The notes under the pieces: generated by a model
Databases searched by the model: none
What the model was told of the DNA's origin: nothing
The model's input: only the letters and a program-made list of their open reading frames with translations
Source: Octopus vulgaris
Taxonomy: Eukaryota
DNA length: 64,000 bases
Reading direction: 5' to 3'
NCBI GenBank assembly: GCA_951406725.2
Contig: OX597819.1
Location: 135,408,001 to 135,472,000, forward strand
Translations under genes and position numbers: made by a program
Part shown: one piece after another, positions 2,401-63,610 of the stretch
How the letters are laid out: every line of letters starts with the position of its first letter
Position numbering within the stretch: position 1 is the stretch's first letter

Positions 2401-2660
2401 TATTATATATATATATATATGTGTATGTATGTATATATGTATGTATGTATATATATATGTATGTATATATATATATATATATATATATATCTATGTATAT
2501 ATATATGTATGTATGTATATATGTATATATATGTGTGTGTATATATATATATGTATATATATATATATATGTATATATATATATGTGTTATATATATATA
2601 TATATATATATATATATATATATATATATATATATATATATATATATATATATATATACA
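2401..2660. repeat. (TA)n/(TATG)n microsatellite
   Basis: Direct reading. Similar tracts at ~3340-3560, 18420-18555, 48141-48255, 58720-58822 and 62815-62930. Confidence 0.95.
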
Positions 2661-2738
2661 CAATTTAGAGGACTAGAGGACTGACCACTAAGAGTGGATA
2701 GCCTATATGCTAAACATAGACGTCAAATCGCCATTTAC

Positions 2739-2952
2739 CACGAAGAATGTGTTCTCAAGAAAAATCTCAGCAAAAAGCCAAAGTGTAAAAATAAGCGAAG
2801 ATATGAAAATATCCGAAATGAAAAACGATTCCCTATCTACCAATTGGTTTCACTTGTTAATATTTACGTATTTCGATTATTTTCATGTGTCTTTGCTTAT
2901 TTTTACACTTTGGAGTTTTGCTGAGATTTTTCTTGAGAACACATTCTTCGTG
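2739..2952. repeat. Imperfect ~80-bp inverted repeat (fold-back) between TA microsatellites
   Basis: 2739-2819 (cacgaagaatgtgttctcaagaaaaatctcagcaaaa...) is the reverse complement of 2870-2952. Confidence 0.85.
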
Positions 2953-4230
2953 AAAAACGGGATGGACGCTTCGATTTTGTTTTGGTGCCTCGCTCTGTTG
3001 TACACGACTATGAGGATTTGCATCCCCAACGTAATTCGTCTTTTTCCCAAACTAATGTAATACATGTCCTAGGAGTAGTAATTGTATGCGGCTGAAGAAG
3101 GCTATTGACATACAAATTACATCAATTATGCATTGATATAACCGTCTAATAAAAGCGGTTGGTGTTTACATAGGAAGCACACTGTCAGAGTTGGTTTGGA
3201 ACCAACTTTAAGTTTTTAGTCCAACATATCAGCTCAAGTAATATCTAAGCCCTACACTCGTTCTATCGGTACAATTTGCCGCATCGCTAGGTGAGAGGGA
3301 TGTTCACAGCGCTTGTCAAGCATCGCTGGGACAATTAATGTATGTATGTATATATGTATATATATATATATATATATATATATATATATATATGTATGTA
3401 TGTACTATATATATGTATATATACGTATATATACGTATATATATATATATATATATATATATATATATATATATACATATATATATATATATATATATAT
3501 ATATATATATACATATATATATACATATACGTACATACATACATATATACACACACACAAACACCCACACACAATCTCTCTCACGGATGCACGTACAAAC
3601 ACATATTCATTTACCTGCATTTATGTATGTGTGTATGTGTGTGTGTGTGTGTGTGTGAGATGGACACATACACATAACTGTGATGGTAGTCGTTCACATT
3701 TTCCGTTGTGAGGTTTTGGGTGACTTCTTGCTTAAGAGACTTTCTGTCCTCGCCTGCTGCATTTTAATTGACAATAGAGATGTTTGATCTCCGAGTCGCT
3801 GGACATTGGGGGGAAATGGTTCTCCAGCGAAACGCAACAGAACTGAAAAAACATCGATATTGTAAAATTCAAATGAAGTAGCCAGACGGGTGTATTTACA
3901 CACACACACACACACACACACACACACAAACACTCTGACGGATACACGTACAAACACATGTTTATTTGTATGCATTTATATGTTTGTGGTGGTTGCGGTT
4001 GGTGTTTCAGTGTGTGATGGACACATTCATACACCTGTGATGGTAGTCCTCGACAATCTTGGTTGAGCAGGTGTTTTGCATAAGAGACATCTTGTTCTCA
4101 CCTGCGGTCTTTAACCTGACAATGGATCCGATTGATGCCATTGGCCCTTTGTTGTTCTACTTTTCACCTCTCAGGTGATTCTATCAAATGGATATGATCT
4201 GCATAATGCCGATTGCATAATGCCAAATCT

Positions 4231-4632
4231 GCATTATGCAGTTCATATCCATTTGATAGAATCACCTGTCAAAGTAATTGTGCAATATGTTCGACAAACC
4301 CACATGTGAACAGCAAAGCCAAGGTCACCGTATACCAAATTGAGTGCCAAGAAGTAGCTTGCGCGACTAACCCAGAGTCATACATAGGTGAGACTTCTAG
4401 GAGTATCAATGATAGCTTCAAAGAACACCTGGACATCTACATTGAAAGGAAGCCAAACTCCATCTTCTACCAACATGCTGTGGACTGCCACAGGGGATCC
4501 TTAGGGAAACTTAAGTTAAACATCCTATCAACACATCCCACCGATGCAATGTTGAGACAGGTCACAGAAGCCGTTTGTATACAAGAATACAAACCTATTC
4601 TCAACCGAAAATCCAAATGGAGTAACATCTAG
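4231..4632 (+). mobile_element. 5'-truncated Penelope-like element fragment: GIY-YIG endonuclease
   Basis: CAIC...VYQIEC...YIGETSRS...FKEH...EAVCIQEYKPILN pattern typical of PLE GIY-YIG domains. A 38-bp fold-back sits at the 5' junction (4172-4268). Confidence 0.85.
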
Positions 4633-5296
4633 ATCCCATTCAGGAGGACCATTCTATAACCACCCCTCTCTCTCGTTTACATGTAATCCTTACATACACG
4701 TTGCAATGCGTGGTGCTAAAACACATATGTGCAGTTATATATAACCGTATGAGCGTACGTTGTTCGATACGTATGTGCGTGTGTGGTGCTATAAAAAATG
4801 CACATGCATGCGCATGTGAGCATGTATGGATGTATGTATGTATTGTATATGTATGCGTTTATGCTTATATAAAAAAAAGAAAAAAAAGAACAGATAGGTT
4901 AATATAATGCATGTTCGATTTTTAACTGTTGCCCTTGTATACTGTGTCGTATTTTGTATGTGTGTGTGTGTGCGTATGTATGTTTATGCATGTGTGTGCA
5001 TGTGTGTGTGCGTGTGTATGTGTGTATGTGTGTAATAGGACATATGTATGAAGAAGTGGATAAGAATATATGAGTATATAATTTAAGATTATATGTATAT
5101 TTATGAGTGTGTCTATATGATTGTGTGTGCTTGCGTATATGTATATGGTTATATGTGCACAGTTGCATCTAAACGTTGTATCCATTCACAGTTAGACGAT
5201 GATGAGAAGAACAAACACACACCCACACATATATATATGTGTGTACGTCTATACAAACATATATGTGTGTATATAGACAACCTTCAACAAAGTGAC

Positions 5297-60589: not shown

Positions 60590-61230
60590 TTCATTAAACT
60601 AAAACACCTAAAGCTCTACGAGGCTCCAGCAAGGGCTGGTGTCGAACCCTGCTGTATTATTTCACCACAACTTCTCTCATTCTGTCTTCCTGTTTCTGTT
60701 GTACCTGTATTTCAGAGGGGCCAGCCATGTCACACTCTGTGTCACGCTGAATCTCACCGAGAACTACGTTAAGGGTACATGTGTCTCTGGAGTGCTCAGC
60801 TACTTGCATATTAATTTCACGAAACGTCTAAGGCGGCGAACTGGCAGAAACGTTAGCACGCCGGGCGAAATGCTTAGCAGTATTCCGTCTGCTGCGACGT
60901 TCTGAGTTCAAATTCCGCAGAGGTCGACTTTGCCTTTCATCGTTTCGAGGTCGATTAAATAAGGACCAGTTATGCACTGGGGTCGTTATAATCGACTTAA
61001 TCCGTTTGTCCGTCCTTATTCGTCCCCTCTGTGTTTAGCCCCCTGTGGGTAGTAAAGAAATAGGTATTTCGTCTGTCTTTACTTTCTGAGTTCAAATTCC
61101 ACCGAGGTCGACTTTGCCTTTCATCCTTTCGGGGTGGATAAATCAAGTACAAGTTTCGATCTGATGTAGATCTAATCGATGGCCGCCTCCCTTAAAATTT
61201 CGGACCTTCTGCCTAGAGTTGAAAAGAATT
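60590..61230 (+). mobile_element. Cluster of SINE fragments, including a copy of the 5297-5525 family
   Basis: 60832-61042 matches 5297-5525, followed by an internal partial duplication. Confidence 0.7.
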
Positions 61231-61774
61231 TCACGAGTAGTCTTCCGTTGACTGGATCAACTGGAAACCTCTTCGTCTTAACCGACGGAGTGCCATAGCA
61301 TTATATATGTACACGCACACACATATATCTATATATATATACAAGACATATAAATATTATTAAAGATAATGTTACTATCTAACAAGAATAAATGTTGATG
61401 ACGAAGCTGTTTTGGTTGAAAGGATCTGAAGAATTAGTAAGGAAGAAGATAGCGTGTTACCATGGTGGAAATGACCATAACTGATTTGACGGAAGTAAAA
61501 CAGAAATACTATAGGGTGCAACCCGTGCAAGGAATAGATACAGAGGTATGGAAGTTAAGAGAGAAGTGGGCTCCAGATGCGGAAGTTGGACGGGAGCACA
61601 TGTGAAATTAACTTCCCATAATCTCCAAGAGGACGTGTAGAAGTAACTCATACATTCTGTTCCTTGGGAGTGGGATTTATGAGATTGTTTTGCCCACACT
61701 CAAACTCTCCCTCTCTTCATTCACACTCGTTCTCTCTGTTCCATTCTCTGTTCGTATCTTTTTATGCGCCCTTT

Positions 61775-62320
61775 TCAAGCCTAGTCAGGGCTCATGGGCC
61801 CGGTTTCCCGGTTTATGTGGCGTATGTGTTCCCCAAGTGGAAGAGACGCCAGTCCATCACAGCGTTACCCAAGAAACAGGAAGTAAGTATGAGAGAAATT
61901 TGGGGCGAAAGAGTAGAACAGGGGGTCGCCAGCAACCCCTGCCTGAGCTCGTGGAGCATTAGGTGTTTTCGCTCAATAAACACACACAACACGCGGTCTG
62001 GGAATCGAAACCGCCATCCTCCGACCGCGAGGCCGCTCCCCTAACCACAGAGCCATTGCGCTTCCACAAAATGAATTCGCCCTTTTAAAGCCTAACCAGG
62101 CTCATGGGCCCGGTTTCCCGGTTTCAGTGGCGTATGTGTTCCCCAGCTGGAGGGGACGCCAGTCCATCGCAGCGTTACTCATTTTAGCCAGCTGAGTGGA
62201 CTGGAGCAACGTGAAATGAAGTGTTTTGCTCAAGAACCCAACGCGTCGCCCCGTCCAGGAATCGAAACCACAATCATACGATCATGATGCTGACACCCTA
62301 ACCACTAAGCCACGCGCCTA
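61775..62320 (-). mobile_element. Two adjacent tRNA-derived SINEs
   Basis: Shared ggctcatgggcccggtttcccggttt block at 61789 and 62099; minus-strand heads with GTGGTTAG and GGTTTCGATTCC boxes. Confidence 0.7.
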
Positions 62321-62980
62321 CACCCTACGTCATTATATAAATAGAATAATCATCTACAAGGTGCACTTCGAGCTACAAATAATTCTGCCTGCTACAATTA
62401 TAAGGTTTTAACTTTTGCTAATTAATTACATCGACGCCGAAGTTAATCTAGAGAGAATTGTATCGACCCTTGAAATGAAAAAAAGTGACGGGATTCGAAC
62501 CCAGAATGTAAATTACCAAGGAATAGTTATAAATATTACTAACAAGTCATTGAGTGTATCTCTCGTGTAGTAATTGTTAGTATGAAACAGGTGTGCCTGT
62601 TTGTGTGCGTATCGAAGAAAAGGTGTTTGTGTGACTTATCATACAATAAGCGAAGAGTGTTGTTACACTTGACTTAACATTAACAACTGAAGTCGCTTTT
62701 ATAAAAAAAAATTATACTTCTATCCCAGTAAACAACTCTCATTATTATCAAGGCTATATACACCCACATGTGGGTGGTAAGCAAGCTAATTACCACACAG
62801 CCACTCCTGCGCCTATATATATATATATATATATATATATATATATATATATATATATATATATATATATATATATATATATATATATATATATATATAT
62901 ATATATATATATATATATATATATATATATACTTGCAGGGGAAAATTAGATTTAGCATTAAATCCAGTTTTATAGTATAA

Positions 62981-63610
62981 ATATATTATATTATATTATA
63001 TTAAATTAGAGATAAAACCACTATTAGGCAAATCAAACAGTGAAAAACATAAGCCATTACATAAAGTTAATTTAAAAATATAAAAGTTAAAATTTTAAAA
63101 ATTATTTAAATAATTTAAACTTATAAATTTTAAATATATATATATACAAATATATATATATATATATATATATATATATGTGTGTGTGTATGTATGTATA
63201 TTTTTATATTTATATATTATTTTATTTAATAATTTATTTATTATTTAATTTATTTAATTATTTATTTATTAATTTTTTTTTTATTATCATATAAATATCA
63301 AAAGTATTACAACTTTTAATACTTTTGATATTTATATAATGAAAATAAAATAAATAAATTAATAAATAAAATAATTAATTAATAAATTAATAAATAAAAT
63401 AATATATAAATATAAAAATATACATACATACACACACACATGTATATATATATATTTAAAATTTATAAGTTTAAATTATTTAAATAATTTTTAAAATTTT
63501 AACTTTTATATTTTAAAATTAATTTTACGTATTGGCTAATGTTTTTTCACGGTTTGATTTGCCTAATAGTGGTTTTATCTCTAATATAATATAATATAAT
63601 ATAATATATA
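62981..63610. repeat. ~630-bp AT-rich fold-back between TA tracts
   Basis: 62981-63309 pairs with 63317-63610 around a ~7-nt loop; ~50-nt unpaired tail on the left. Confidence 0.88.

Follow-up and report, generated by a model that had tools for sequence, protein, structure and literature searches.

Fold-back inserts in TA repeats of Octopus vulgaris are probably insertion units of Penelope-like retrotransposons built on a known pattern

In Penelope-like elements (PLEs), an element is often adjoined by an inverted, 5'-truncated copy and carries a one-sided tail, and a linker of the CX4CxxC type has been tied to the Neptune and Nematis groups and, tentatively, to a bias toward microsatellites (PMC8557442). 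The tail is known to lie between two start sites of the reverse transcriptase (RT), and both target strands are cut (PMC11167929); dual minimal hammerheads occur on opposite strands, 100-700 bp apart (PMC4209133). Of the described systems, the endonuclease-bearing (EN+) PLE unit whose linker is of the Neptune/Nematis type (Craig et al., 2021, PMC8557442; Arkhipova et al., 2013, PMC3846280) is the closest to the locus analysed here. They have in common an ORF with RT plus, at the C-terminus, a GIY-YIG endonuclease, the CX2-5CxxC linker, heavy 5' truncation, an adjoining inverted 5'-truncated copy, a one-sided tail, (TA)n targets, a hammerhead motif near the 3' end (degenerate in the coding element) and palindromes at the inverted junctions. 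The octopus locus differs in the tails, which in four of five elements are 55-102 nt long instead of the described 30-40 nt, in the lack of a direct (tandem) pseudo-LTR (pLTR) in its coding element, in the dominance of very short units, and in the four inserts (A, E, F and G) devoid of hammerheads. The long tails and the missing hammerheads count against the reading preferred below, as do the off-plan anatomy of insert A and the recurrence of some hairpin centres.

The window, i.e. the whole 64,000-nt stretch of the O. vulgaris contig OX597819.1 that was analysed, contains real fold-back inserts in (TA)n. Most likely they arose by ordinary insertion of Penelope-like retrotransposons, from several families that bear an endonuclease and target (TA)n. 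In elements B, C, D, E and G one arm ends 1-6 nt from a (TA)5+ run, while the end of the opposite arm is separated from TA by 41, 79, 77, 103 and 56 nt, respectively, the one-sided tails being 40-102 nt long. Among 11 local inverted pairs, picked from a blind self-BLAST of the window, five come as close as 10 nt to TA with one end, against a background of 3.2% per pair (binomial P 1.3e-5). For fold-back, A, C, D, E and the core of G score 89-188, above the shuffle maxima (22-60; 20 shuffles each). Target-site duplications are unreadable within (TA)n. The original prediction counted at least six sequence-distinct, (TA)n-flanked inserts with inverted arms and an extension on one side; this plan stands for B, C, D, E and G, fails for A and is borderline for F. 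Their distinctness has to be taken with a reservation: the tails of C and D align with each other (1/500 shuffles) and the left end of A aligns to the arm of E (0/500 shuffles), these being two of the 28 pairs tested and modest once corrected. One more segment (1554-2403), which at first looked mildly inverted, failed the retest (101/200).

Judging from its sequence, element B (18557-23911) is a textbook PLE unit, having an ORF with RT and GIY-YIG domains and a Neptune-type linker, 5'-truncated at a joined inverted copy of its own 3' end. The Penelope ORF noted within 18553-23912 is indeed there: a single uninterrupted frame (19427..21448, + strand), lacking about 98 N-terminal residues, with RT (PF00078, E 9e-8), a CX4CxxC linker and, C-terminally, a GIY-YIG endonuclease (PF01541, E 5.6e-6). 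It matches protein P0001 at 73% over residues 99-772 of the latter, and a protein of Octopus bimaculoides at 83% over 61% of the query. The homology of the ORF begins at 19427, one base past the end of the inverted arm (18557..19426, - strand), a tail-less, 5'-truncated copy of the 3' end of the element (inverted pLTR) which abuts (TA)n; the truncation of the ORF and the inversion junction therefore coincide. Downstream are a microsatellite-rich 3' UTR (21449..22992, +), harboring a 376-bp LINE 3' fragment (21999-22374, 94% to 54403-54774), the sense 3' arm (22993..23871, +), identical to the inverted one at 856 of 866 positions, and a one-sided 40-nt tail (23872..23911, +) followed by (TA)n. 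The linker (C543-X4-C548-XX-C551) is invariant in 24 aligned proteins; the CX2-5CxxC type is common to Neptune and Nematis. The Hydra clade could be discarded for B, as well as for locus H discussed below, both having a linker of the CX2-5CxxC type and not CxCX5C. Like PAc, the Poseidon element of Anolis (Frangieh et al., 2024, PMC11167929), the octopus families have tailed and tail-less ends, AT-rich targets and, in D, a predicted stem-loop in the tail; in PAc, however, the hammerhead and the tail overlap the start of the ORF, whereas the tail of B does not overlap its ORF, the N-terminus of which is missing.

Locus H (4172..4632, +) is not flanked by TA and contains a 47-bp palindrome (arms identical at 45/47) where another, divergent GIY-YIG C-terminus of the PLE type is 5'-truncated (tblastn E 9e-5 to P0101; 46% to P0121; PF01541 E 0.026, below the cutoff). 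It provides an independent case for palindromes at PLE truncation points.

The short inserts C and D have no direct repeat within the window. The C fold-back (47681..47835) consists of 74-75-bp arms (47681-47755 and 47762-47835, identical at 70/74) around a 6-nt loop and is followed by a 78-nt tail (47836..47913, +), which has a motif in common with the tail of D and is family sequence, not host flank, its summed depth in public run X1 being 0.66-1.08 million over 47841-47888. In D, the 76-nt tail (47941..48016, -), with a short stem-loop TACTC/GAGTA predicted at 47982-48004, precedes a perfect 59-bp fold-back (48017..48140; arms 48017-48075 and 48082-48140, identical at 59/59).

The original prediction that several inserts carry hammerhead cores holds for C, D and, in degenerate form, B, and fails for A, E, F and G, where neither a strict descriptor nor a looser scan found any. 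The strict descriptor has four matches in the window, namely both arms of C (47771 +, 47746 -; U4C core) and both arms of D (48087 +, 48070 -; canonical type I core); over 100 block shuffles the number of matches averages 0.04-0.06 and never exceeds 1. In C and D the arm contains a PLE-type type I hammerhead that has the same sense as the tail. B has a U3:A8-type core in both arms (18634 -, 23794 +), detected only by the looser scan, which gave 10 matches, two in the arms of B and five outside any arm; the core shows the GAAAC-CG-GTT arrangement of locus L007, and each arm fails the strict descriptor by one private change. Half-motifs resembling hammerheads, spotted by eye in the right extension of A and in F, fail the descriptor. 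An Rfam search of the window returned no hammerhead, all 97 matches being below the gathering score; most are miRNA models on microsatellites or hairpins, and A, C and D are among the sub-threshold miRNA matches. Among loci of related PLE proteins, 29 of 96 match the strict descriptor; L051 and L085 have one hammerhead per strand, in inverted arms, L005 and L007 have a U-flanked stem II like those of B and D, and the U3:A8 core recurs in L020 and L084, the U4C core in L027. The octopus motifs resemble the minimal hammerheads of PLEs (Cervera and de la Pena, 2014, PMC4209133) in being of type I, with a short or palindromic stem III, with the U3:A8 variant, and paired on opposite strands a short distance apart. 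They deviate in that the D motif is able to form a 4-bp stem III and that the G10.1-C11.1 pair, highly conserved according to the same authors, is absent from B, C and D (B and D have a U-U mismatch there, and the C family an A facing a variable base). The U4C core of C is found in most DNA contigs of one organism. Isolated hammerhead regions and tails fold no better than shuffles (z -2.0 to +0.35), and the folding energy therefore gives no support for ribozymes.

The remaining inserts vary in how closely they follow the plan. Insert E (56364..56636, +) has 62-bp arms (56364-56425 and 56473-56534, identical at 55/62), a 47-nt loop and a 102-nt tail. Insert G (62932..63603, -), located in the (TA)n run that terminates a SINE-like repeat, has AT-rich arms of about 290-320 bp (62987-63309 and 63317-63603, identical at 272/286), a 7-nt loop and a 55-nt tail on the left. 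Insert A (2659..3340) has 92-bp arms (2727-2819 and 2870-2963, identical at 83/92), neither of which touches TA, and extensions on both sides, the 68-nt left end being related to the arm of E and the 377-nt right one unrelated. F (59190..59755), with 42-bp arms at 83% (59191-59232 and 59696-59739, 35/42) around a 463-nt spacer, has a fold-back score of 39, equalled in 1/500 shuffles, and the suggestion that 59190-59760 is an old insert stays borderline. Neither A nor F gave an ORF or a PLE protein match. By their anatomy E and G appear PLE-like; A looks atypical and F a borderline, possibly old member.

These four inserts, for which neither a hammerhead nor a coding link was found, could instead represent microsatellite-targeting MITEs, or other DNA-transposon or fold-back elements that mimic PLE ends: F resembles terminal repeats around a spacer, and plant MITE and Mutator families are reported to target TA microsatellites. 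We consider this unlikely. The geometry of E and G is that of B, C and D, with a one-sided extension of 55-102 nt beyond the inverted repeat. A TIR transposon would lack such an extension. It would also have constant boundaries and an inverted repeat at each terminus, whereas the tailed inserts end on one side in 40-102 nt of family sequence, and the centres of C and D vary. Besides, hammerhead-less, (TA)n-targeting PLEs, the Naiads, have been reported, with remnants in cephalopods (PMC8557442); their (TA)n targeting, inverted copies, tails and lack of hammerheads fit E, G and A, although no ORF with an N-terminal EN was found in the window.

In public contigs, both C and D turn out to be repeat families of high abundance. 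Contigs from four runs (of 24 listed) were aligned to C and D (11631, 4254, 3344 and 336 contigs, respectively), contig depth not being equal to copy number and the rows listed being those with the best support. The D hairpin centre is crossed by only 0.26-1.04% of the arm depth, and the 15 joints listed, out of 63, are 15 different from-to pairs, so the centres proved variable rather than constant. Loose ends upstream of the centres (47755 and 48076-48081), which carry only 30 letters past the break, indicate that longer copies exist, and those in (TA)n at 48009 (19, 12 and 17 contigs) indicate tail-less ends on TA; variable 5' truncation with longer copies is seen in both families, more strongly in D. 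The rarely crossed D centre, the other pivots and the upstream extension together favor by-products of truncation and inversion over minis with fixed boundaries. In this way, the proposed link to PLEs and extreme truncation found support, directly in the ORF of B and, for C and D, in their PLE-type hammerheads, variable centres and longer copies. Tapering of depth toward the centres and TA edges was rejected as a sign of truncation hot-spots, as short contigs under-align near any boundary; the A>G differences, which DNA-type runs contain as well, are no measure of A-to-I editing. Neither the C nor the D motif had a match when viral contigs were scanned by pattern (0 and 0), and a metagenome scan with the single B ORF gave none; the scan with an alignment query yielded 79 + 17 PLE loci, which have no convincing DNA similarity to the minis (two low-complexity or weak matches).

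Some centres do recur, namely a D-type hairpin 9 nt shorter (depth 696 in run X6, 214 in X4, plus one X16 piece), one joint with a depth of 1135, and the C centre, crossed by 8 of 32 listed pieces with 0-9 gaps, though by only one under a 31-letter rule. Together with the tail motif conserved between C and D, the non-autonomous PLEs known from Chlamys (PMC8557442) and the action of pLTRs in trans in rotifers (PMC3846280), this would agree with some minis being non-autonomous PLE derivatives, transcribed with a fixed hairpin and dependent on a tail-recognising PLE protein for re-insertion in trans. We find this improbable, considering the share of at most about 1% of D depth that crosses the D centre and the difference of every listed joint; the recurrence may be explained by a short palindromic microhomology just upstream of the D core, and the predicted duplex would block folding of the ribozyme and probably the RT as well. 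There is little chance that a hammerhead-bearing subset with fixed centres amplifies independently via the C/D tail motif, seeding near-perfect dsRNA templates of 60-300 bp for editing or small-RNA pathways. The independently amplifying hairpin or ribozyme retroelements of the original prediction are unsupported for D and of low probability for C.

Being short and non-coding, with type I hammerheads and a relation to PLEs, C and D also resemble non-LTR retrozymes (PMC7229834; bioRxiv 10.64898/2026.07.22.740005), which propagate through self-cleaved circular RNAs and in animals are proposed to derive from pLTRs (bioRxiv 10.64898/2026.07.22.740005). Retrozymes, however, consist of units repeated head to tail, whose hammerheads all lie on the same strand (same sources), whereas C and D are head to head with motifs on opposite strands, leaving a single hammerhead per transcript, and it is very unlikely that they belong there. 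The contigs, albeit a weak test, have no reported sites where many molecules begin or end. The hairpins could also stem from faulty assembly or from palindromes formed locally at (TA)n by replication slippage. Long (TA)n runs, like palindromes, are easily misassembled, the D arms are 100% identical and no listed contig spans the whole C and D stretch, but arm mismatches of 1-17% in six of seven elements, hairpins with other centres in independent runs and the coincidence of the B junction with the ORF truncation make this explanation hardly credible.

Returning to ordinary PLE insertion, each unit very likely consists of two copies of one 3' end, a sense copy with 5' truncation and an inverted one, which meet head to head. 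By analogy with published PLE work, the GIY-YIG endonuclease would cut both strands of the AT-rich (TA)n target, RT would initiate at two sites inside the RNA of the element, making one end tailed and the other tail-less, and both cDNAs would end early and be joined at their truncated ends. The distance traveled by RT should then determine the sizes in the series, which runs from D (200 bp) to B (5.4 kb), and the minis would be dead on arrival. Read-through transcription should reach the antisense arm first and give an RNA with a 60-75 bp duplex burying the hammerhead; such duplexes are predicted to fold at -98.6 and -107.8 kcal/mol, compared with -4 to -8 when the hammerhead regions are folded by themselves, which makes a dsRNA source plausible.

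Thus, the TA-repeat hairpins probably follow a known pattern and are unlikely to be a new self-copying element; their architecture is in print, while the octopus families are probably new. Cephalopod PLEs with hammerhead ribozymes are barely covered in the literature searched, so these families may be undescribed, or else may already be present in the O. vulgaris TE library or in the supplements of PMC8557442 or PMC13282606. If our reading is true, it is of modest, practical use: a short PLE fold-back can readily be mistaken for a MITE or a miRNA hairpin, its paired arms may serve as a clock for each insertion (about 0-17 My at a borrowed rate), and the tail motif common to C and D is a candidate element for recognition by RT. 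The octopus lineage is known for heavy A-to-I editing, and the fold-backs may, as predicted, supply it with perfect dsRNA.

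The single long ORF of a Penelope-like element (PLE) in the window, whose GC content is 36% and whose 63 (TA)5+ runs are grouped in 37 blocks, lies in the fold-back B (18557-23911) and matches a protein of Octopus bimaculoides (83%, with 61% coverage). The homology of this ORF to the related PLE protein P0001 (772 residues) begins at residue 99, that is at position 19427, and the inverted arm of B stops at 19426, which indicates a 5'-truncated copy standing head to head with its own inverted 3' end. Judged from its sequence, B is a 5'-truncated PLE whose 3' end is repeated once in inverted orientation over 870 bp, with a tail (40 nt) on a single side, the plan described in PMC8557442 and PMC3846280; compared with an EN+ PLE unit, B works like one and is one. 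A near-complete APE-RT LINE with a frameshifted ORF2 occupies 51499-54774, and 376 bp of its 3' end recur (94%) at 21999-22374, between TA runs in the 3' UTR of B. Outside the predicted set, a 47-bp palindrome with no TA flank (H, 4172-4632) lies where another PLE-type GIY-YIG endonuclease C-terminus, divergent in sequence (46% to the PLE protein P0121), is truncated at its 5' side.

As to the other inserts, the original prediction of inverted arms was borne out for all six main fold-backs, namely A (2659-3340), B, C (47681-47913), D (47941-48140), E (56364-56636) and G (62932-63603), whose arms are 89-100% identical and whose scores are far beyond those of shuffles. The possible old member F (59190-59755) is borderline (35/42 identical arm positions; score matched by 1 of 500 shuffles). 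The proposed one-sided plan applies to B, C, D, E and G, where 1-6 nt separate one arm end from a TA run while the other arm runs into a tail (78, 76, 102 and 55 nt in C, D, E and G), and does not apply to A, which has 68 nt and 377 nt outside its arms and in which neither arm contacts TA. Flanking by (TA)n exceeds background: among 11 local inverted pairs, chosen by masked self-BLAST blind to TA content, five have TA within 10 nt of an end at an expectation of 3.2% per pair (P 1.3e-5), so the background-level flanking that would have counted against the original prediction is not seen. The left 68 nt of A resemble the E arm (0/500 shuffles; one of two positives among 28 pairs tested) and, on this similarity, may represent a unit's tail-less end, the right side having been replaced; the right extension (2964-3340, 377 nt) contains no ORF and matches neither the rest of the window nor any of the 96 loci encoding related PLE proteins.

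Other repeats include a SINE-like one ending in (TA)n, dispersed at 13127-13546, 14821-15234, 24655-25084, 49126-49291, 60076-60361 and 62767-62816. One such copy has G inside its terminal TA run, and thus SINE tails may supply PLE targets. A TTTC-rich low-complexity element of ~6 kb forms an inverted pair ~30 kb apart (5953-11944 and 41988-47155; segments up to 97% identical), with shorter kin at 38064-38541.

Hammerhead cores, predicted for several inserts, were recovered in C and D and, imperfectly, in B. The Rfam search of the window reported none; a strict type I descriptor gave four matches, in both arms of C and both arms of D (0.04-0.06 in 100 block shuffles), and matched 29 of the 96 PLE loci. 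Each arm of B has a U3:A8 core broken by one private change; no motif was detected in A, E, F or G. Folded alone, the putative motifs are no better than shuffles. Among the related loci, L051 and L085 carry inverted pairs of hammerhead motifs, L005 and L007 a U-flanked stem II, L020 and L084 U3:A8 cores and L027 a U4C core; PMC4209133 reports both a covariant U3:A8 core and paired motifs lying on opposite strands. At 47772, hammerhead position 4 of C, about 96% of depth in the public runs X1 and X6 (organism code A) is C; the canonical U4 accounts for 3-4% there versus 70% in X16 (same code, perhaps RNA, 4 contigs), and for 65% in X4 (organism code C, 32 contigs). At 47774-47835, an ATG overlapping the C core starts a short reading frame, in the left arm (the right arm is frameshifted), which recalls PAc, whose ORF begins at stem II.

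Sequences of the C and D stretch are partly present in 20 of 24 listed runs (10 studies, six organism codes), none of those listed being recorded as RNA, and in the four aligned runs 11631, 4254, 3344 and 336 contigs were placed. The contigs cover the two arms and the tail of each insert, hence the tails are family sequence; the consistent added sequence at loose ends upstream of both centres implies that longer copies exist, and 19, 12 and 17 contigs with loose (TA)n at position 48009 represent tail-less ends on TA elsewhere. The hairpin centres, which under the original prediction could be fixed or variable, are variable in these contigs, yet grouped just upstream of the hammerhead. Some hairpins may nevertheless undergo limited amplification, since one D-type hairpin, shorter by 9 nt, is seen repeatedly (depth 696 in X6, 214 in X4, one X16 piece), a single joint has a depth of 1135, and the C centre is crossed by 8 of the 32 pieces listed (0-9 gaps; one by a 31-letter rule). 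However, the summed depth at the D centre (48078), which is not equal to copy number, amounts to 0.39, 0.26, 1.04 and 0.54% of the depth at 48059, and the 15 best-supported of 63 joints all differ (11 D-type, skips 32-65; 4 C-type, skips 36-92). Retrozymes, which according to PMC7229834 and bioRxiv 10.64898/2026.07.22.740005 need same-strand tandem hammerheads, do not fit the opposite-strand, head-to-head motifs of C and D. MITEs associated with microsatellites are on record in plants.

The reading as truncated PLE products is thus carried in B by the coincidence of ORF truncation and inversion junction, in C and D by motifs and variable centres, and in E and G by anatomy. Apart from physical ORF linkage, C and D share all the testable features of an EN+ PLE unit; E and G agree with one in anatomy and could be either Naiad-type or ends truncated below the ribozyme. 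The C tail (47836-47913) aligns with the D tail (47941-48016; 1/500 shuffles; the other positive among the 28 pairs), and majority letters at 47863 and 47865 (at least 98% of contig depth) bring it into line with the D motif. The common motif, which includes a short stem TACTC/GAGTA, is a candidate RT-recognition element. Loose ends at 47826 indicate other subfamilies retaining the C tail under different upstream sequence. PLE relatives are also encoded at seventeen loci (L080-L096) in records titled bacterial MAGs; hammerheads and inverted arms accompany some of them, and host-animal contamination of the assemblies is the probable reason for their presence there.

As for the origin of such units, a GIY-YIG protein would cut both strands of AT-rich DNA and reverse transcription would begin at two internal sites with the tail between them (both steps after PMC11167929); if a pair of truncated cDNAs were then joined 5' end to 5' end, fold-backs would result. 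The linker is proposed to cause the (TA)n bias in PMC8557442, the single paper retrieved on cephalopods, hammerhead ribozymes and Penelope; among the papers listed by the literature searches, none dealt with octopus PLE fold-backs. Arm divergence, at a rate quoted in PMC13282606, dates D to about 0, B to 1.6, G and C to 7-8 and A and E to 15-17 My, estimates that gene conversion would lower. Taken together, the fold-backs are real, their architecture is known, and they are probably new family members. Since the two copies face each other head to head, transcription reading through from either flank produces the antisense arm before the sense arm; with predicted duplex energies of -98.6 and -107.8 kcal/mol, and -4 to -8 for the hammerhead region, the short fold-backs such as C and D would be poor self-cleaving replicons and good dsRNA.
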